Positions 1 to 12,420 of a DNA stretch of 12,420 bases are shown here, one piece after another. How positions within the stretch are numbered: position 1 is the first letter of the stretch; each line of letters opens with the position of its first letter. Location: IMG/VR virus record IMGVR_UViG_2617270975_000005; one strand, 5' to 3'. The notes below the pieces were generated by a model. That model did no database searches. It had not been told where the DNA came from and saw nothing but the letters and a program-made list of their open reading frames with translations. Made by a program: the position numbers and the translations under genes. The DNA is from a virus (taxonomy: Duplodnaviria; Heunggongvirae; Uroviricota; Caudoviricetes).

Positions 1-35
1 GATTTAGTGTATGATGGTGTTTTTGAGGTGCTCCA

Positions 36-311
36 GTGGCTTCTGTTTCTATCAGCTGTCCCTCCTGTTCAGCTACTGACGGGGTGGTGCGTAACGGCAA
101 AAGCACCGCCGGACATCAGCGCTATCTCTGCTCTCACTGCCGTAAAACATGGCAACTGCAGTTCACTTACACCGCTTCTCAACCCGGTACGCACCAGAAA
201 ATCATTGATATGGCCATGAATGGCGTTGGATGCCGGGCAACAGCCCGCATTATGGGCGTTGGCCTCAACACGATTTTACGTCACTTAAAAAACTCAGGCC
301 GCAGTCGGTAA
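36..311 (+). CDS. insA: IS1 InsA (small DNA-binding transposition inhibitor, N-terminal Cys-rich zinc-finger-like region), GTG start
   Basis: 91-aa [25 protein letters not shown]...LKNSGRSR matches InsA as I recall it, with a C-x2-C...C-x2-C motif. Start codon is GTG at 36. Confidence 0.93.
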
Positions 312-733
312 CCTCGCGCATACAGCCGGGCAGTGACGTCATCGTCTGCGCGGAAATGGACGAACAGTGGGGATACGTCGGGGCTAAATCGCGCCAGCGC
401 TGGCTGTTTTACGCGTATGACAGGCTCCGGAAGACGGTTGTTGCGCACGTATTCGGTGAACGCACTATGGCGACGCTGGGGCGTCTTATGAGCCTGCTGT
501 CACCCTTTGACGTGGTGATATGGATGACGGATGGCTGGCCGCTGTATGAATCCCGCCTGAAGGGAAAGCTGCACGTAATCAGCAAGCGATATACGCAGCG
601 AATTGAGCGGCATAACCTGAATCTGAGGCAGCACCTGGCACGGCTGGGACGGAAGTCGCTGTCGTTCTCAAAATCGGTGGAGCTGCATGACAAAGTCATC
701 GGGCATTATCTGAACATAAAACACTATCAATAA
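230..733 (+). CDS. insB: IS1 InsB reading frame; expected to be expressed mainly as the InsAB' transposase fusion by -1 frameshifting from insA
   Basis: 167-aa [19 protein letters not shown]...HYLNIKHYQ matches InsB as I recall it. It overlaps the insA 3' end in the -1 frame. Confidence 0.9.
287..293 (+). other. A6C slippery heptamer (AAAAAAC) for programmed -1 ribosomal frameshift, insA to insB
   Basis: AAAAAAC lies in the insA frame (codons TTA AAA AAC) inside the insA/insB overlap, just upstream of the insA stop at 309-311. This is the position described for IS1 frameshifting. Confidence 0.8.
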
Positions 734-750
734 GTTGGAGTCATTACCTA

Positions 751-776
751 GCCTCGCATTCGCGGGGCTTTTTATT
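751..776 (+). terminator. Rho-independent terminator-like hairpin directly after the IS1 right end
   Basis: GCCTCGC-ATTC-GCGGGGC forms a 7-bp GC-rich stem (one G-U pair) with a 4-nt loop, followed by TTTTTATT. The T-tract is only on the plus strand. Confidence 0.5.
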
Positions 777-1067
777 GCCATTACAAAAGCCACTTCCTAC
801 AGAGTGGCTTTGATAATGGTTTATACCCTACACGGGATAACTTAACTGATATCCCTTTTAAAGGATAAAGGTATTCAAGCCTGACACATCATGCGCTGTA
901 TCGTCGCCGTATTCCCGTATTAACAGAGACCGTAGCCCGACGGGGAACTCCTTCTGCGCGAGTGTGCGGGAATAATCAAAAACGATGCACACCGGGGTTA
1001 CCGGGTACACATATTTCATCATGCCAGCGAGTCCGGTTCTGGCACGGAAGAAACCGGACGTTATGAT

Positions 1068-1478
1068 TTAGTGCGGAAATATTTGTGTAGTGTTCTGAAT
1101 GTTCTCAGTAAAGAGTAATGAATTATCAAAGGTATAGTAATACCTTTTGTTTTCGTGGATATTTGTAATCCATCTGAAAACCCCTGCTGTAGCAAGATTT
1201 TTCCTGTATTCGTAAAATGATAACTCTCCTGATTTGAATCCTTTTAAGGTGGCTTCTATAAGGCATTTATTTTTTGAAAATCTTACATTTACAACCTTAC
1301 CCTGTCCTTTTATTAAAACCGTATTATCGTTTTCAAGAACAAGATGAATATTCTCTGTAGCTAAATAGTAAATGTAATGTGAGACATTGTGACGTTTTAG
1401 TTCAGAATAAAACCAGTGATAGTTTAAATTATTTCGCACTTTATCGAATATTTGTTTAAAAATGGCAACCTGAGCCAT
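1068..1478 (-). CDS. Hypothetical prophage accessory (moron) protein, 136 aa, AT-rich; possibly a YbcV/DUF1398-like protein (identity unverified)
   Basis: Six-frame ORF 1068-1493 on the minus strand. I place the start at the second in-frame ATG (1478) because GGAAGG lies 7 nt upstream, whereas the first ATG (1493) has no Shine-Dalgarno. G+C is about 30% by hand count, against more than 50% in the flanking phage genes. It is co-oriented with the upstream 77-aa ORF, about 55 bp apart. Confidence 0.6.
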
Positions 1479-1534
1479 TGTAGTACCTTCCATGTGATAT
1501 GAGGGGCGTAGTCTGCACGATTATCTAAATTGCT

Positions 1535-1768
1535 TCAATCTGGTCTGATCTGTTTTCTGAGCAATTCAGTAATGTCACTCTTTTCTTTGTTTGCTTCAGG
1601 AGAAACTCTTTTTTCTGAGCACAGTCTCCGGCGGCAGGCTTCAATGACCCAGGCTGAGAAATTCCCGGACCCTTTTTGATCAAGAGCGATGTTAATTTGT
1701 TCAATCATTTGGTTAGGAAAGCGGATGTTGCGGATTGTTGTTCTGCGGGTTCTGTTCTTCGTTGACAT
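1535..1768 (-). CDS. Small basic protein, 77 aa, with probable ribbon-helix-helix-type DNA-binding N-terminus; possibly YlcI/DUF3950-like (identity unverified)
   Basis: ORF MSTKNRTRRTTIRNIRFPNQMIEQINIALDQKGSGNFSAWVIEACRRRL... has a basic N-terminus and a strand/helix pattern that suggests an RHH fold. GGGA lies about 8 nt upstream of the ATG. It sits immediately left of cos, divergent from nu1. Confidence 0.6.
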   Translation of the reverse strand: MSTKNRTRRTTIRNIRFPNQMIEQINIALDQKGSGNFSAWVIEACRRRLCSEKRVSPEANKEKSDITELLRKQIRPD

Positions 1769-1934
1769 GAGGTTGTCCCGTATTTAGTGTCGCTGATTTG
1801 TATTGTCTGAAGTTGTTTTTACGTTAAGTTGATGCAGATCAATTAATATGATACCTGCGTCATAATTGATTATTTGACGTGGTTTGATGGCGTAGATGCA
1901 CGTTGTGACATGCAGATGATAATTATTATCATTT

Positions 1935-2140
1935 TGCGGGTCCTTTCCGGCGATCCGACAGGTTACGGGGCGGCGACCTCGCGGGTTTTCGCTATTTATG
2001 AAAATTTTCCGGTTTAAGGTGTTTCCGTTCTTCTTCGTCGTAACTTAATGTTTTTATTTAAAATACCCCCTGAAAAGAAAGGAAACGACAGGTGCTGAAA
2101 GCGAGCTTTTTGGCCTCTGTCGTTTCCTTTCTCTGTTTTT
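1935..2140 (+). promoter_or_regulatory. cos: Phage cos site (cosQ - cosN - cosB): terminase recognition and cutting region
   Basis: Contains ...ATCCGACAGGTTACG|GGGCGGCGACCTCGCGGGTTTTCGCTATTTATG..., the lambda right-end/left-end junction as I recall it. Followed by three GTTTCC-type repeats at about 2020-2035, 2075-2090 (inverted) and 2118-2133, which I read as R3, R2 and R1, with an A/T-rich stretch between R3 and R2 in the position of the IHF site. nu1 starts 189 bp after the cohesive-end start. Confidence 0.9.
1968..1979 (+). other. cosN: cosN 12-nt cohesive-end sequence GGGCGGCGACCT (staggered nick region)
   Basis: Exact 12-mer that I recognise as the lambda cohesive end, preceded by GGTTACG. 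Confidence 0.88.
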
Positions 2141-2156
2141 GTCCGTGGAATGAACA

Positions 2157-2676
2157 ATGGAAGTCAACAAAAAGCAGCTGGCTGACATTTTCGGTGCGAG
2201 TATCCGTACCATTCAGAACTGGCAGGAACAGGGAATGCCCGTTCTGCGAGGCGGTGGCAAGGGTAATGAGGTGCTTTATGACTCTGCCGCCGTCATAAAA
2301 TGGTATGCCAAAAGGGATGCTGAAATTGAGAACGAAAAGCTGCGCCGGGAGGTTGAAGAACTGCGGCAGGCCAGCGAGGCAGATCTCCAGCCAGGGACTA
2401 TTGAGTACGAACGCCATCGACTTACGCGTGCGCAGGCCGACGCACAGGAACTGAAGAATGCCAGAGACTCCGCTGAAGTGGTGGAAACCGCATTCTGTAC
2501 TTTCGTGCTGTCGCGGATCGCAGGTGAAATTGCCAGTATTCTCGACGGGATCCCCCTGTCGGTGCAGCGGCGTTTTCCGGAACTGGAAAACCGACATGTT
2601 GATTTCCTGAAACGGGATATCATCAAAGCCATGAACAAAGCAGCCGCGCTGGATGAACTGATACCGGGGTTGCTGA

Positions 2677-2702
<26 letters not shown>
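2157..2702 (+). CDS. nu1: Terminase small subunit (cosB-binding, winged-HTH N-terminus)
   Basis: 181-aa ORF MEVNKKQLADIFGASIRTIQNWQEQGMPVLRGGGKG... is near-identical to lambda Nu1 as I recall it. Correct distance from cos; 3' end overlaps the A start by 26 nt. Confidence 0.97.
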
Positions 2703-6383
<3,681 letters not shown>

Positions 6384-6403
<20 letters not shown>

Positions 6404-7703
6404 TCTCCCGCATATTGCCAGTATGGCCTTTAATGAGCCGCTGATGCTTGAACCCGCCTATGCGCGGGTTTTCTTTTGTGCGCTTGCAGGCCAGCTTGGG
6501 ATCAGCCGCCTGACGGATGCGGTGTCCGGCGACAGCCTGACTGCCGGAGAGGCACCCGCGGCGCTGGCGTTATCCGTTGATGATGACGGACCACGACAGG
6601 CCCGCAGTTATCAGGTCATGAACGGCATCGCCGTGCTGCCGGTGTCCGGCACGCTGGTCAGCCGGACGCGGGCGCTGCAGCCGTATTCGGGGATGACCGG
6701 TTACAACGGCATTATCGCCCGTCTGCAACAGGCTGCCAGCGATCCGATGGTGGACGGCATTCTGCTGGATATGGACACACCGGGCGGGATGGTGGCGGGA
6801 GCATTTGACTGTGCTGACATCATCGCCCGTGTGCGAGACATAAAACCGGTATGGGCGCTGGCCAACGACATGAACTGCAGTGCAGGTCAGCTGCTTGCCA
6901 GCGCCGCCTCCCGGCGTCTGGTCACGCAGACCGCCCGGACAGGCTCCATCGGCGTCATGATGGCTCACAGTAATTACGGTGCTGCGCTGGAGAAACAGGG
7001 CGTGGAAATCACGCTGATTTACAGCGGCAGCCATAAGGTGGATGGCAACCCCTACAGCCATCTACCGGATGATGTCCGGGAAACACTGCAGTCCCGGATG
7101 GATGCAACCCGCCGGATGTTTGCACAGAAGGTGTCGGCATATACCGGCCTGTCCGTGCAGGCTGTGCTGGATACCGAGGCTGCAGTGTACAGCGGTCAGG
7201 AGGCCATTGATGCCGGACTGGCTGATGAACTTGTGAACAGTACCGATGCGATCACCGTCATGCGTGATGCACTGGATGCACGTAAATCCCGTCTCTCAGG
7301 AGGGCGAATGACCAAAGAGACTCAATCAACAACTGTTTCAGCCACTGCTTCGCAGGCTGACGTTACTGGCGTGGTGCAAGCGACGGAGGGCGAGAACGCC
7401 AGCGCTGCGCAGCCGGACGTGAACGCGCAGATCACCGCAGCGGTTGCGGCAGAAAACAGTCGCATTATGGGGATCCTCAACTGTGAGGAGGCTCACGGAC
7501 GCGAAGAACAGGCATGCGTGCTGGCCGAAACCCCCGGTATGACCGTGGAAACGGCCCGCCGTATTCTGGCCGCAGCACCACAGAGTGCACAGGCGCGCAG
7601 TGACACTGCGCTGGATCGTCTGATGCAGGGGGCACCGGCACCGCTGGCTGCAGGTAACCCGGCATCTGATGCCGTTAACGATTTGCTGAACACACCAGTG
7701 TAA
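6384..7703 (+). CDS. C: Prohead protease / minor capsid protein C (S49 ClpP-like family), GTG start
   Basis: The six-frame ORF starts at 6249, but the lambda-like protein begins VTAELRNLPHIASMAFNEPLM at GTG 6384, preceded by GAGGAGGAG. That start gives 439 aa, the lambda gpC length, and overlaps the B 3' end by 20 nt. Confidence 0.93.
7098..7703 (+). CDS. nu3: Scaffolding protein Nu3, nested in-frame in the 3' third of C (shared stop)
   Basis: In-frame ATG at 7098 gives MDATRRMFAQKVSAYTGLSVQ..., 201 aa, matching lambda Nu3 and its nested arrangement. Confidence 0.85.
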   Translation: MDATRRMFAQKVSAYTGLSVQAVLDTEAAVYSGQEAIDAGLADELVNSTDAITVMRDALDARKSRLSGGRMTKETQSTTVSATASQADVTGVVQATEGENASAAQPDVNAQITAAVAAENSRIMGILNCEEAHGREEQACVLAETPGMTVETARRILAAAPQSAQARSDTALDRLMQGAPAPLAAGNPASDAVNDLLNTPV

Positions 7704-7712
7704 GGGATGTTT

Positions 7713-8045
7713 ATGACGAGCAAAGAAACCTTTACCCATTACCAGCCGCTGGGCAACAGTGACCCGGCACATACGGCAACCGCGCCCGGCGGATTGAGTG
7801 CGAAAGCGCCTGCAATGACCCCGCTGATGCTGGATACCTCCACCCGTAAGCTGGTTGCGTGGGATGGCACCACCGACGGTGCTGCCGTTGGCATTCTGGC
7901 GGTTGATGCTGACCAGACCAGCACCACGCTGACGTTCTACAAGTCCGGCACGTTCCGTTATGAGGATGTGCTCTGGCCGGAGGCTGCCAGCGACGAGACG
8001 AAAAAACGGACCGCGTTTGCCGGAACGGCAATCAGCATCGTTTAA
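7713..8045 (+). CDS. D: Head decoration protein D
   Basis: [43 protein letters not shown]...; 110 aa from ATG 7713 with AAGGGA upstream. The ORF track begins two codons earlier at 7707. Matches lambda gpD. Confidence 0.95.
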
Positions 8046-8063
8046 CTTTACCCTTCATCACTA

Positions 8064-8087
8064 AAGGCCGCCTGTGCGGCTTTTTTT
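8064..8087 (+). terminator. Stem-loop with T-tract in the D-E intergenic region (intrinsic terminator-like or RNA-stability/processing element)
   Basis: AAGCCGC-CTGT-GCGGCTT followed by TTTTTTT: a 5-bp G/C stem extended by A-T pairs, 4-nt loop, U-run, lying between the D stop (8045) and the E start (8101). Confidence 0.5.
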
Positions 8088-8100
8088 ACGGGATTTTTTT

Positions 8101-9126
8101 ATGTCGATGTACACAACCGCCCAGCTGCTGGCGGCAAATGAGCAGAAATTTAAGTTTGATCCGCTGTTTCTGCGTCTCTTTTTCCGTGAGAGCTATCCCT
8201 TCACTACGGAGAAAGTCTATCTCTCACAAATTCCGGGACTGGTAAACATGGCGCTGTACGTTTCGCCGATTGTTTCCGGTGAGGTTATCCGTTCCCGTGG
8301 CGGCTCCACCTCTGAATTTACGCCGGGATATGTCAAACCCAAGCATGAAGTGAATCCGCAGATGACCCTGCGTCGCCTGCCGGATGAAGATCCGCAGAAT
8401 CTGGCGGACCCGGCTTACCGCCGCCGTCGCATCATCCTGCAGAACATGCGTGACGAAGAGCTGGCCATTGCTCAGGTCGAAGAGATGCAGGCAGTTTCTG
8501 CCGTGCTCAAGGGCAAATACACCATGACCGGTGAAGCCTTCGATCCGGTTGAGGTGGATATGGGCCGCAGTGCGGCGAACAACATCACGCAGTCCGGCGG
8601 CACGGAGTGGAGCAAGCGTGACAAGTCCACGTATGACCCGACCGACGATATCGAAGCCTACGCGCTGAACGCCAGCGGAGTGGTGAATATCATCGTGTTT
8701 GATCCGAAAGGCTGGGCGCTGTTCCGTTCCTTCAAAGCCGTCAAGGAGAAGCTGGATACCCGTCGCGGCTCTCATTCCGAGCTGGAGACAGCGGTGAAAG
8801 ACCTGGGTAAAGCGGTGTCCTATAAGGGGATGTATGGCGATGTGGCCATCGTCGTGTATTCCGGACAGTACGTGGAAAACGGCGTCAAAAAGAACTTCCT
8901 GCCGGACAACACGATGGTGCTGGGTAACACTCATGCACGCGGTCTGCGCACCTATGGCTGTATTCAGGATGCGGATGCATTGAGTGAGGGTATTAATGCG
9001 TCTCCCCGTTATCCGAAAAACTGGAAGACATCCGGCGATCCGGCGCGAGAGTTCACCATGATTCAGTCAGCACCGCTGATGCTGCTGGCTGATCCTGATG
9101 AGTTCGTGTCCGTTCAACTGGCGTAA
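8101..9126 (+). CDS. E: Major capsid protein E
   Basis: MSMYTTAQLLAANEQKFKFDPLFLRLFFRESYPFTTEKVYLSQIPGL...; 341 aa from ATG 8101, the lambda gpE length. The ORF-track start at 8074 is a GTG inside the upstream hairpin and is rejected. Confidence 0.96.
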   Translation: MSMYTTAQLLAANEQKFKFDPLFLRLFFRESYPFTTEKVYLSQIPGLVNMALYVSPIVSGEVIRSRGGSTSEFTPGYVKPKHEVNPQMTLRRLPDEDPQNLADPAYRRRRIILQNMRDEELAIAQVEEMQAVSAVLKGKYTMTGEAFDPVEVDMGRSAANNITQSGGTEWSKRDKSTYDPTDDIEAYALNASGVVNIIVFDPKGWALFRSFKAVKEKLDTRRGSHSELETAVKDLGKAVSYKGMYGDVAIVVYSGQYVENGVKKNFLPDNTMVLGNTHARGLRTYGCIQDADALSEGINASPRYPKNWKTSGDPAREFTMIQSAPLMLLADPDEFVSVQLA

Positions 9127-9167
9127 TCATGGCCCTTCGGGGCCATTGTTTCTCTGTGGAGGAGTCC

Positions 9168-9563
9168 ATGACGAAAGATGAACTGATTGCCCGTCTCCGC
9201 TCGCTGGGTGAACAACTGAACCGTGATATCAGCCTGACGGGGACGAAAGAAGAACTGGCGCTCCGTGTGGCAGAGCTGGAAGAAGAGCTTGATGACACGG
9301 GCGACACTGCCGATCAGGATACCCCTCTCAGCCCGGAAAATGTGCTGACCGGACATGAAAATGAGGTTGTATCAGCGCAGCCGGATACCGTGACTGATAC
9401 GGCTGATCTGGTCACGGTTGTGGCACTGGTGACGCTGCATACTGATGCACTTCACGCCACGCGGGATGAGGCTGTGGCATTTGTGCTGCCGGGAACGGCG
9501 TTCCGTGTCTCTGCCGGTGTGGCAGCTGAAATGACAGAGCGCGGCCTGGCCAGAATGCAATAA
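9168..9563 (+). CDS. FI: DNA packaging / head assembly protein FI
   Basis: MTKDELIARLRSLGEQLNRD... from ATG 9168 with GGAGGAG upstream; 131 aa. Lambda-like, but with clustered substitutions and one codon fewer than the lambda FI I recall. Confidence 0.9.
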   Translation: MTKDELIARLRSLGEQLNRDISLTGTKEELALRVAELEEELDDTGDTADQDTPLSPENVLTGHENEVVSAQPDTVTDTADLVTVVALVTLHTDALHATRDEAVAFVLPGTAFRVSAGVAAEMTERGLARMQ

Positions 9564-9574
9564 CGGGAGGCGCT

Positions 9575-9928
9575 GTGGCTGATTTCGATAACCTGTTCGA
9601 TGCTGCCATTGCCTGCGCCGATGAAACGATACGCGGGTACATGGGAACGTCAGCCACCATGACATCCGGTGAGCAGTCCGGTGCTGTGATACGTGGTGTT
9701 TTTGATGACCCTGAAAATATCAGCTATGCCGGACAGGGCGTGCGCGTTGAAGGCTCCAGCCCGTCCCTGTTTGTCCGGACTGATGATGTGCGGCAGCTGC
9801 GGCGCGGCGACACGCTGACCATCGGTGAGGAAAACTTCTGGATAGACCGGATTTCGCCGGATGATGGCGGAAGCTGTCATCTCTGGCTTGGGCGGGGCGT
9901 ACCGCCTGCCGTTAACCGTCGCCGCTGA
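9575..9928 (+). CDS. FII: Head-tail connector / head completion protein FII (GTG start)
   Basis: 117-aa ORF MADFDNLFDAAIACADETIRGYMGTSATMTSGEQSG... matches lambda gpFII. Start-codon identity (GTG) is inferred from lambda; my hand count of that line was off by one, so I rely on the ORF-track coordinate. Confidence 0.95.
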   Translation: MADFDNLFDAAIACADETIRGYMGTSATMTSGEQSGAVIRGVFDDPENISYAGQGVRVEGSSPSLFVRTDDVRQLRRGDTLTIGEENFWIDRISPDDGGSCHLWLGRGVPPAVNRRR

Positions 9929-9939
9929 AAGGGGGATGT

Positions 9940-10518
9940 ATGGCCATAAAAGGTCTTGAGCAGGCCGTTGAAAACCTCAGCCGTATCAGCAGAACGGCGG
10001 TGCCCGGTGCCGCCGCAATGGCCATTAACCGCGTTGCTTCATCCGCGATATCGCAGTCGGTGGCACAGGTTGCCCGTGAGACAAAGGTACGCCGGAAACT
10101 GGTAAAGGAAAGGGCCAGGCTGAAAAGGGCCACGGTCAAAAATCCGCAGGCCAGAATCAGGGTTAATCGGGGGGATTTGCCCGTAATCAAGCTGGGTAAC
10201 GCGCGGGTTGTCCTTTCCCGCCGCAGACGTCGTAAAAAGGGGCAGCGTTCATCCCTGAAAGGTGGCGGCAGCGTGCTTGTGGTGGGAAACCGTCGTATTC
10301 CCGGCGCGTTTATTCAGCAACTGAAAAATGGCCGGTGGCATGTCATGCAGCGTGTGGCCGGGAAAAACCGTTACCCCATTGATGTGGTGAAAATCCCGAT
10401 GGCGGTGCCGCTTACCACGGCGTTTAAACAGAATATTGAACGGATACGGCGTGAACGTCTTCCGAAAGAGCTGGGCTATGCGCTGCAGCATCAACTGAGA
10501 ATGGTAATAAAGCGATGA
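9940..10518 (+). CDS. Z: Tail completion / minor tail protein Z
   Basis: 192-aa ORF MAIKGLEQAVENLSRISRTAVPGAAAMAINRV... matches lambda gpZ in length and sequence. Confidence 0.95.
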   Translation: MAIKGLEQAVENLSRISRTAVPGAAAMAINRVASSAISQSVAQVARETKVRRKLVKERARLKRATVKNPQARIRVNRGDLPVIKLGNARVVLSRRRRRKKGQRSSLKGGGSVLVVGNRRIPGAFIQQLKNGRWHVMQRVAGKNRYPIDVVKIPMAVPLTTAFKQNIERIRRERLPKELGYALQHQLRMVIKR

Positions 10519-10910
10519 AACATACTGAACTCCGTGCAGCCGTACTGGATGCACTGGAGAAGCATGACACCGGGGCGACGCTTTTTGATGGTCGCCCCGC
10601 TGTTTTTGATGAGGCGGATTTTCCGGCAGTTGCCGTTTATCTCACCGGCGCTGAATACACGGGCGAAGAGCTGGACAGCGATACCTGGCAGGCGGAGCTG
10701 CATATCGAAGTTTTCCTGCCTGCTCAGGTGCCGGATTCAGAGCTGGATGCGTGGATGGAGTCCCGGATTTATCCGGTGATGAGCGATATCCCGGCACTGT
10801 CAGATTTGATCACCAGTATGGTGGCCAGCGGCTATGACTACCGGCGCGACGATGATGCGGGCCTGTGGAGTTCAGCCGATCTGACTTATGTCATTACCTA
10901 TGAAATGTGA
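10515..10910 (+). CDS. U: Tail terminator protein U
   Basis: 131-aa [48 protein letters not shown]... matches lambda gpU. ATGA overlap with the Z stop. Confidence 0.95.
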
Positions 10911-10917
10911 GGACGCT

Positions 10918-11049
10918 ATGCCTGTACCAAATCCTACAATGCCGGTGAAAGGTGCCGGGACCACCCTGTGGGTTTATAAGGGGAGCGGTGACCCTTATGC
11001 GAATCCGCTTTCAGACGTTGACTGGTCGCGTCTGGCAAAAGTTAAGTAA
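10918..11049 (+). pseudogene. V: Major tail tube protein V, 5' fragment (43 codons) cut by an IS66-family insertion
   Basis: [43 protein letters not shown] matches the lambda gpV N-terminus, which is about 246 aa. It then runs into a stop supplied by the IS terminus (GTAA); downstream sequence is IS66-family, not V. Confidence 0.88.
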
Positions 11050-11098
11050 CCGGCTCATTTAAACCGTCTGGTCTGTTTCCTCCGGCTCTACAAAAATA

Positions 11099-11776
11099 AT
11101 GTCCATCATTTTTAATGGACACTATCGTATGAAACACCGGACCTGGATCACTGAAGCTTTACGTCTTCACTTTGAAGAACATTTACCCCGGGTTGTGGCC
11201 GGGCGTCGCCTGGGTGTACCAAAATCAACAGTTTGTAGTATGTTCGTGCGCTTTCGGAGAGCTGGCCTTTCGTGGCCTTTGCCCGCAGGCATGTCGGAGC
11301 AGGAACTTGATGCCTGCCTTTACGGACAATTTTCCACGGTACCAGTCGTACGTCCTGAAAGCACCGTTATATCCGAAGCCCCCGTGGTAAAAAAACGTCC
11401 CCGGCGGCCCAACTTCCCTTATGAGTTTAAAATCGCCTTAGTGGAGCAGTCACTGCAGCCCGGAGCCTGTGTGGCGCAGATCGCCCGGGAAAACGGAATC
11501 AACGATAACCTGCTCTTCAACTGGCGCCATCAATACCGGAAAGGTGGCCTGCTGCCTTCCGGAAAAAATATGCCGGCACTGCTTCCCGTGACGTTAACGC
11601 CGGAGCCGGATAATAAAATCCCGGCCCCCGCACAGGAACCAGAGCAGATAAATACACCGTCCGACAGTCTGTGTTGTGAGCTGGTTCTGCCGGCCGGAAC
11701 TCTCAGGCTTAAAGGTAAACTGACGCCGGCGTTATTACAGACACTTATCCGCGAAATAAAAGGGAGCAGCCACTGA
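11099..11776 (+). CDS. tnpA: IS66-family orf1 (TnpA-like accessory HTH protein); start uncertain (ATG 11099 or ATG 11129)
   Basis: The C-terminal part ...RRPNFPYEFKIALVEQSLQPGACVAQIARENGINDNLLFNWRHQYRKGG... has the HTH motif typical of IS66 Orf1 and IS3 OrfA proteins. Its stop overlaps the orf2 start (TGATG). Neither candidate start has a strong Shine-Dalgarno. Confidence 0.8.
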   Translation: MSIIFNGHYRMKHRTWITEALRLHFEEHLPRVVAGRRLGVPKSTVCSMFVRFRRAGLSWPLPAGMSEQELDACLYGQFSTVPVVRPESTVISEAPVVKKRPRRPNFPYEFKIALVEQSLQPGACVAQIARENGINDNLLFNWRHQYRKGGLLPSGKNMPALLPVTLTPEPDNKIPAPAQEPEQINTPSDSLCCELVLPAGTLRLKGKLTPALLQTLIREIKGSSH

Positions 11777-12123
11777 TGATATCTCTCCCTGCAGGTTCGC
11801 GTATCTGGCTGGTTGCAGGTATCACCGATATGCGAAATGGCTTTAACGGCCTGGCATCAAAAGTTCAGAACGTCCTGAAGGATGACCCGTTCTCCGGACA
11901 CCTGTTCATCTTCCGCGGACGCCGGGGTGACCAGATAAAAGTGTTGTGGGCTGACAGTGACGGACTGTGCCTCTTCACCAAACGCCTGGAGCGGGGCCGC
12001 TTCGTCTGGCCAGTCACCCGTGACGGCAAGGTGCACCTTACTCCGGCTCAGTTATCCATGCTTCTTGAAGGTATCAACTGGAAGCACCCGAAACGAACGG
12101 AACGCGCTGGAATCCGCATATAA
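11776..12123 (+). CDS. tnpB: IS66-family orf2 (TnpB accessory protein)
   Basis: 115-aa ORF MISLPAGSRIWLVAGITDMRNGFNGLASKVQNVLKDDPFSGHLFIFRGRRGDQIKVLWADSDGLCLFTKRLERGRFVWP... is the conserved IS66 Orf2 family pattern. Confidence 0.9.
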   Translation: MISLPAGSRIWLVAGITDMRNGFNGLASKVQNVLKDDPFSGHLFIFRGRRGDQIKVLWADSDGLCLFTKRLERGRFVWPVTRDGKVHLTPAQLSMLLEGINWKHPKRTERAGIRI

Positions 12124-12142
12124 CCCGTTGTAAAGTGAGGAT

Positions 12143-12420
12143 ATGGACACCTCACTTGCTCATGAGAACGCCCGCCTGCGGGCACTGTTGCAGACGCAAC
12201 AGGACACCATCCGCCAGATGGCTGAATACAACCGCCTGCTCTCACAGCGGGTGGCGGCTTATGCTTCCGAAATCAACCGGCTGAAGGCGCTGGTTGCGAA
12301 ACTGCAACGTATGCAGTTCGGTAAAAGCTCAGAAAAACTTCGTGCAAAAACCGAACGGCAGATACAGGAAGCACAGGAGCGAATCAGCGCACTTCAGGAA
12401 GAAATGGCGGAAACGCTGGG
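12143..12420 (+). CDS. tnpC: IS66-family transposase TnpC, N-terminal ~92 codons (3' end outside window)
   Basis: MDTSLAHENARLRALLQTQQDTIRQMAEYNRLLSQRVAAYASEINRLKALVAKLQRMQFGKSSEKLRAKTERQIQEAQERISALQEEMAETL: heptad-like Leu/Ala-rich N-terminus typical of IS66 transposases. GAGG lies just upstream. The ORF is open to the window end. Confidence 0.85.
   Translation, partial: MDTSLAHENARLRALLQTQQDTIRQMAEYNRLLSQRVAAYASEINRLKALVAKLQRMQFGKSSEKLRAKTERQIQEAQERISALQEEMAETL

Follow-up and report, generated by a model that had tools for sequence, protein, structure and literature searches.

What ended the major tail gene of this lambda-like prophage, and could the prophage still build a tail of its own? 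The window, by which we mean the whole stretch of 12,420 bp analysed here, is the entire draft contig JNQZ01000078.1 (assembly GCA_000704425.1), and near its right end the reading frame of V closes after 43 codons. We consider it highly probable (about 0.9) that a 2,699-bp IS66-family IS transposed into V between nucleotides 128 and 129, duplicating the target AAAGTTAA.

Gene V and the element that follows it

An earlier note on this DNA had stated that every packaging and head gene upstream of V is full length, and this was borne out. The 11 genes from Nu1 to U each have a single terminal stop and the length of their lambda counterparts, except FI (131 vs. 132 AA), with protein identities to lambda of 90.2–100%. 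The most diverged of these late genes was FI (9168–9563; 90.2% identity), the other ten being 95.7–100% identical. The region 749–11045 showed 98.1% identity to the isolated phage Kati and 96.8% to lambda. On the left, the contig opens at base 21 of an IS1 copy; on the right, it breaks off within the IS66-family element. It stops there because short-read assembly fails to span a repeat present in many copies; both contig ends are repeat-induced short-read breaks and no biological ends, and the right one is not the end of the prophage. The interruption of V by the IS thus explains the position at which the contig ends.

Table 1. Positions of the features discussed in the text; coordinates are those of the window unless a record is named.
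Feature	Position	Strand	Basis or remark
IS1, from base 21 to its right end	1–748		InsB at 230–733
Nu1, A, W, B, C, D, E, FI, FII: packaging and head genes, full length	2157..9928	+	Lengths and identities vs. lambda; Pfam
Z, tail completion gene, intact	9940..10518	+	Pfam Minor_tail_Z, E 8.9e-82; 192 AA, 97.9% identity to lambda Z
U, tail terminator gene, intact	10515..10910	+	Pfam Phage_tail_U, E 2.2e-61; 131 AA, 99.2% identity to lambda U
V 5′ fragment, major tail tube gene, codons 1–43	10918..11046	+	Translation; 43/43 vs. lambda gpV; Pfam Phage_TTP_12, E 1.9e-8
Target site AAAGTTAA, left copy of the 8-bp duplication	11038..11045	.	Adjoins IS left end; same 8 bases after IS right end in L024
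TAA stop of the V fragment, IS bases 2–4	11047..11049	+	Direct sequence reading; translation
Left 1,375 nt of the 2,699-bp IS66-family IS (PGAP: ISCro1 family)	11046..12420	+	0 mismatches to L001 copy; contig ends in tnpC
Left terminal inverted repeat, imperfect, GTAA start	11046..11071	+	GTAACCGGCTCATTTAAACCGT vs. reverse complement of full copy's right end, GTAAGCGACTCGTCAGAACCGT
tnpA, 225 AA, IS66 accessory protein with HTH domain	11099..11776	+	NCBIfam NF038385 (IS66_access_TnpA), 295.8 bits; Pfam HTH_Tnp_1
tnpB, 115 AA, IS66 Orf2	11776..12123	+	Pfam PF05717 (TnpB_IS66), E 4.7e-40; NCBIfam NF033819 (IS66_TnpB)
tnpC 5′ part, first 92 of 523 codons, ended by contig end	12143..12420	+	Pfam LZ_Tnp_IS66
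IS66-family copy at Z/U junction, RMDEC332	L001 6001–8699		Duplication GCATCAAC
IS66-family copy in V, WS0115A	L002 6530–9228		Duplication ACTGGTCG
IS66-family copy in T, PK8241	L028 4362–7060		Duplication GGACGAGG
IS66-family tandem copies at U, O103:H2 strain 129	L029 about 1–5194
Broken V loci (W67 stop, Q74 stop, 1-nt deletion)	L016 9743–10483; L017 9743–10483; L023 72–811

Translation of positions 10918–11049 gave 43 residues and a stop. All 43 residues are identical to those of gpV in the deposited lambda genome PV340536.1, and the first 128 nt of V differ from that genome by a single nucleotide. The fragment by itself clears the threshold of Phage_TTP_12 (PF16461) with 34.8 bits against a cut-off of 26.1, covering only positions 1–26 of the 135 in the profile. 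Both the sequence match and the position directly after Z and U place it with gpV-type proteins, whose Pfam domains are Phage_TTP_12 and Big_2; the open reading frame ends after residue 43, short of the complete gpV tube domain (residues 1–156). As judged from its sequence, the V fragment is a gene fragment and no functional gpV-type member.

The break lies at 11045|11046, where lambda reads GGCAAAAGTTAA|AGACCTG and the window reads GGCAAAAGTTAA|GTAACCGGCTCATTT. The first base of the IS (G, 11046) becomes the last base of codon 43, so that AAG and its lysine are kept, and the next three bases form the stop. The earlier note had described V as matching lambda gpV for 43 codons before being cut, with its stop supplied by the IS terminus, and our reading agrees with it on both points.

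An identical left junction was found in at least four other assemblies, namely CYAI01000056.1 (L004, an entry that has 10 further similar places besides the one listed), the Logan assembly of SRR1186741 (L008), an ENA metagenome contig (L011) and an IMG/VR contig (L013). Identity to the window was 99.98–100% over 9–10 kb for L004, L008 and L013, and 99.3% for the 2.6-kb L011. None of 5,426 complete E. coli genomes carried the exact left junction, and the two junctions of the insertion were never met on one molecule. Absent from those complete genomes and common to several draft assemblies, the V::IS junction GGCAAAAGTTAA|GTAACCGG is a precise lineage-specific marker. Six further contigs with a 43-AA V product (L005, L006, L007, L009, L010 and L012) were rejected as carriers of the insertion; they end at V codon 43–44 and read intact AAAGTTAAAGA there, and they do not count as evidence because an exact look-up of the 43-residue product selects contigs ending at that point. 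One of them, the Logan contig L006, has at 9150–9420 an inverted 3′ part of V (from about codon 60) fused to the middle of Z, which probably reflects a chimeric assembly or a rearrangement at this locus.

The sequence to the right of the break has the anatomy of an IS66-family element. Three co-directional genes, tnpA, tnpB and tnpC, follow one another in the IS66 order, the tnpB start codon overlapping the tnpA stop (TGATG), and TnpB reached 128.9 bits on NF033819 against a cut-off of 50. The 1,375 bases of the IS present in the window show no mismatch to the full copy in the complete genome of RMDEC332 (L001) and one mismatch to that in WS0115A (L002). Both full copies are 2,699 bp long and encode TnpA, TnpB and TnpC proteins of 225, 115 and 523 AA. 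In L001, TnpC comprises LZ, zf-IS66, DDE_Tnp_IS66 (E 2.5e-103) and C-terminal domains, with 477.9 bits on NF033517; in the copy of the window, the contig ends before the catalytic part of TnpC is reached. The left end (GTAACCGGCTC...) and the reverse complement of the right end (GTAAGCGACTC...) form imperfect inverted repeats that begin with 5′-GTAA. The same IS ends (GTAACCGGC... and ...GTCGCTTAC) recur in three other insertions, which are flanked by 8-bp duplications of their own (Table 1).

Gene order, tnpA/tnpB overlap, GTAA repeats and 8-bp duplications are shared with the IS66-family elements of E. coli (PGAP ISCro1 family; relatives IS679 and ISEc8). The sequence matches RefSeq-annotated copies (TnpB WP_000624622.1, TnpC WP_000381395.1) without any difference, and none in structure was noted; PGAP names this TnpC an "IS66-like element ISCro1 family transposase". 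The name ISCro1 is used here as the PGAP label; for ISCro1 in EC958 a length of 2,824 bp has been published (PMC8764528), vs. 2,699 bp for the present copies. The downstream element had been described in the earlier note as encoding IS66-type orf1, orf2 and orf3, on the understanding that an element of another family would overturn the reading. Profile matches of TnpA, TnpB and TnpC, the GTAA ends and the 8-bp duplications all support that description, and every applicable test placed the element in the IS66 family.

The right junction and competing explanations

Scans of IMG/VR and of the JGI metagenomes for the exact pattern GTCGCTTACAAAGTTAAAGACC(TG) gave no right junction, and look-up of a representative 160-AA V′ fragment (P0007), V′ being the part of V distal to the IS, yielded gapped metagenome scaffolds only. 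Past the IS, the earliest in-frame start of V is M87, from which a gene caller would be expected to predict a protein of 160 AA. Exactly this protein was present in the protein collection (P0121), and one of the contigs encoding it is CYFX01000091.1 (L024), from a sibling draft. There, 86 nt of the IS right end are followed by AAAGTTAA and then by AGACCTGACG..., which is V from codon 44. Past V′ come G (140 AA), T (144 AA), H (853 AA), M (109 AA) and L (232 AA). When the V fragment of the window was joined to L024, leaving out the IS and one of the two duplicated targets, an open V of 246 AA was obtained.

The earlier note had proposed to look rightwards for the IS right end, the rest of V and the downstream tail genes, and had expected an 8-bp target duplication. 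All of these were found in L024, where the junction reads ...GACGAGTCGCTTAC, AAAGTTAA, AGACCTG...; the right junction was not recovered from GCA_000704425.1. Of the duplication, one copy of AAAGTTAA thus precedes the IS in the window and the other follows the IS in a different assembly, on separate molecules. The two V fragments have ENA protein accessions of one series (CTT/CTY/CTZ..., e.g., CTZ78696 and CTZ82199), which fits, without proving, the presence of both junctions in the same genomes. Based on the matching right junction in L024, the original event reads as a simple insertion by transposition, with the distal tail genes surviving in the lineage to which both assemblies belong.

The position of the IS at the very end of the contig could also be understood as a rearrangement breakpoint of this one genome, at which recombination between IS copies, subsequent to the first insertion, removed or moved distal V and the tail genes and left the prophage as a truncated remnant. 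The contig does start inside one IS and end inside another, and the element is abundant, with 11,857 places in 4,229 of 5,426 complete E. coli genomes; in one complete genome (L029) tandem copies are accompanied by lost DNA upstream of U. A contig end within an IS is, however, uninformative here, as short-read contigs break at any multi-copy IS. Moreover, the sibling L024 retains the exact right junction, the duplication and the tail genes from G to L, and sibling contigs with the same left junction are 99.98–100% identical to the window. We consider a rearrangement improbable. That the V/IS junction is an assembly chimera, with V and the IS lying apart in the genome, might be suspected because the contig comes from a short-read draft and is bounded by repeats on either side; yet separate assemblies in NCBI, Logan, ENA-metagenome and IMG/VR records all show this junction, V gives way to the IS precisely at the terminus set by three other insertions, and a reciprocal junction is on record together with the fitting 8-bp duplication. 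A chimera is effectively refuted.

A further alternative accepts the broken V and concerns the cell. Another lambdoid prophage could supply gpV or whole tails in trans, in which case the cell would not be tail-deficient and the DNA would still be packaged and transferred. Lambdoid prophages whose head modules differ do contain V-type genes that are nearly the same at their 5′ ends (e.g., L005 and L022), while no second V lies within the window. We regard supply in trans as possible, with the odds leaning against it.

Expected tail defect and related prophage lesions

For the preferred reading, insertion of the IS into V, the following course can be proposed. An IS66-family IS carrying tnpA, tnpB and tnpC would land between nucleotides 128 and 129 of V and double the 8-bp target AAAGTTAA, so that gpV would end at 43 residues with a stop supplied by the IS. 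A gpV product that stops after 43 residues, or one restarted at M87, would not be expected to polymerise, which would leave the prophage without a tail tube of its own. Provided that it is otherwise inducible, such a prophage would make filled heads and no infectious particles, unless a co-resident lambdoid prophage gave it V. Its early, regulatory, replication, lysis and integration regions lie beyond the contig.

Loss of gpV, as in lambda V amber mutants, leads to tailless heads that can be completed with tails from another source. The prophage in the window resembles these classical mutants in that gpV is likewise lost, and differs in being a natural prophage whose lesion is an insertion of 2.7 kb.

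Residues 1–156 of gpV make up the tube-forming domain and residues 157–246 an Ig-like domain (PMC8718954). Without the Ig-like domain gpV still forms tails, and changes in the 50–78 loop block tube growth (PMC8718954). As the tube domain spans residues 1–156, we can soundly infer that the prophage would be tail-defective, and annotation should list it as defective in tail formation.

That IS elements inactivate morphogenesis genes of prophages, and that co-resident phages rescue such prophages, is well described (PMC2669165). In prophage Sp4 of E. coli O157 Sakai, nu1 is disrupted by ISEc8 of the IS66 family (PMC2669165). Sp4 is likewise a defective lambda-like prophage in which an IS66-family element hit an essential late gene and the other morphogenesis genes are conserved. 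It differs from the present case in the gene affected, which encodes the terminase small subunit and not the tail tube, in the member of the IS66 family involved, and in the strain.

A closer parallel was found in WS0115A (NZ_CP035882.1), whose prophage is 98.1–98.3% identical to the window. The same gene is interrupted there by the same IS (1 mismatch in 1,375 nt) in the same orientation, and PGAP annotates V as two pseudogene fragments. The insertion is nevertheless an independent one: it follows V nucleotide 111, 17 bp upstream of the site in the window, and its duplication is ACTGGTCG in place of AAAGTTAA. Directly past the IS, WS0115A has the remaining V and the genes G, T, H and M, and the sequence retrieved runs out within the first part of L. 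The interruption of V in the window is ordinary IS-mediated prophage decay, an event of a known kind, and its anatomy departs from neither the IS66 family nor lambda.

Neighbouring insertions and the left end of the contig

Counting that of the window, five independent insertions of the same IS66-family element were found within a stretch of about 2 kb in lambda-like tail modules: at the Z/U junction, in U, at V codon 37, at V codon 43 and in T. The Z/U site had 12 further matches with the same span and features, NCTC86 records among them, and was checked in RMDEC332. At U, in the O103:H2 strain 129, two copies stand head to tail (L029 2490–2520), the right end of the first adjoining base 7 of the second, which lacks GTAACC; the tandem copies take the place of the DNA upstream of a 5′-truncated U.

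All five insertions are co-directional with the late operon. An orientation bias was considered and rejected, as the search could detect one orientation only: BLAST places were joined solely from same-strand pieces near the query, which made inverted insertions undetectable. For this reason no preference for site or direction can be derived from the clustering or from the common orientation. We find it very doubtful that the Z-U-V-G-T stretch is a preferred landing zone for IS66-family elements, or that such insertions are selected for disarming the prophage while its other genes are kept, both searches being biased towards finding such cases.

In other strains, V seemed to be broken in different ways. 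Logan assemblies contained a stop at W67, a stop at Q74 and a 1-nt deletion at V nucleotide 75 (Table 1), in contigs retrieved through look-up of the 160-AA product, which selects for a broken V.

The IS1 copy at the left end of the contig has a history of its own. The IMG/VR contig L013, which is 99.98% identical to the window and shares its V::IS junction, has no IS1 at the position corresponding to 748/749 and runs on into the lysis genes Rz, R and S. Since L013 has the V::IS junction without IS1, the IS1 reads as having entered afterwards, at the level of the strain, about 170 bp downstream of Rz. The exact IS1 junction of the window was absent from the complete E. coli genomes searched; O104:H4 strains have a nearby, different one. 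Directly to the right of the IS1 end, at 749–775, there is a terminator-like hairpin (GCCTCGC ATTC GCGGGGC, then TTTTT). Two minus-strand genes, encoding DUF1398 (1068–1493) and DUF3950 (1535–1768) proteins, occupy positions 1068–1768 between IS1 and cos/Nu1, and at the corresponding position the deposited lambda record has YbcV and two minus-strand hypothetical proteins.
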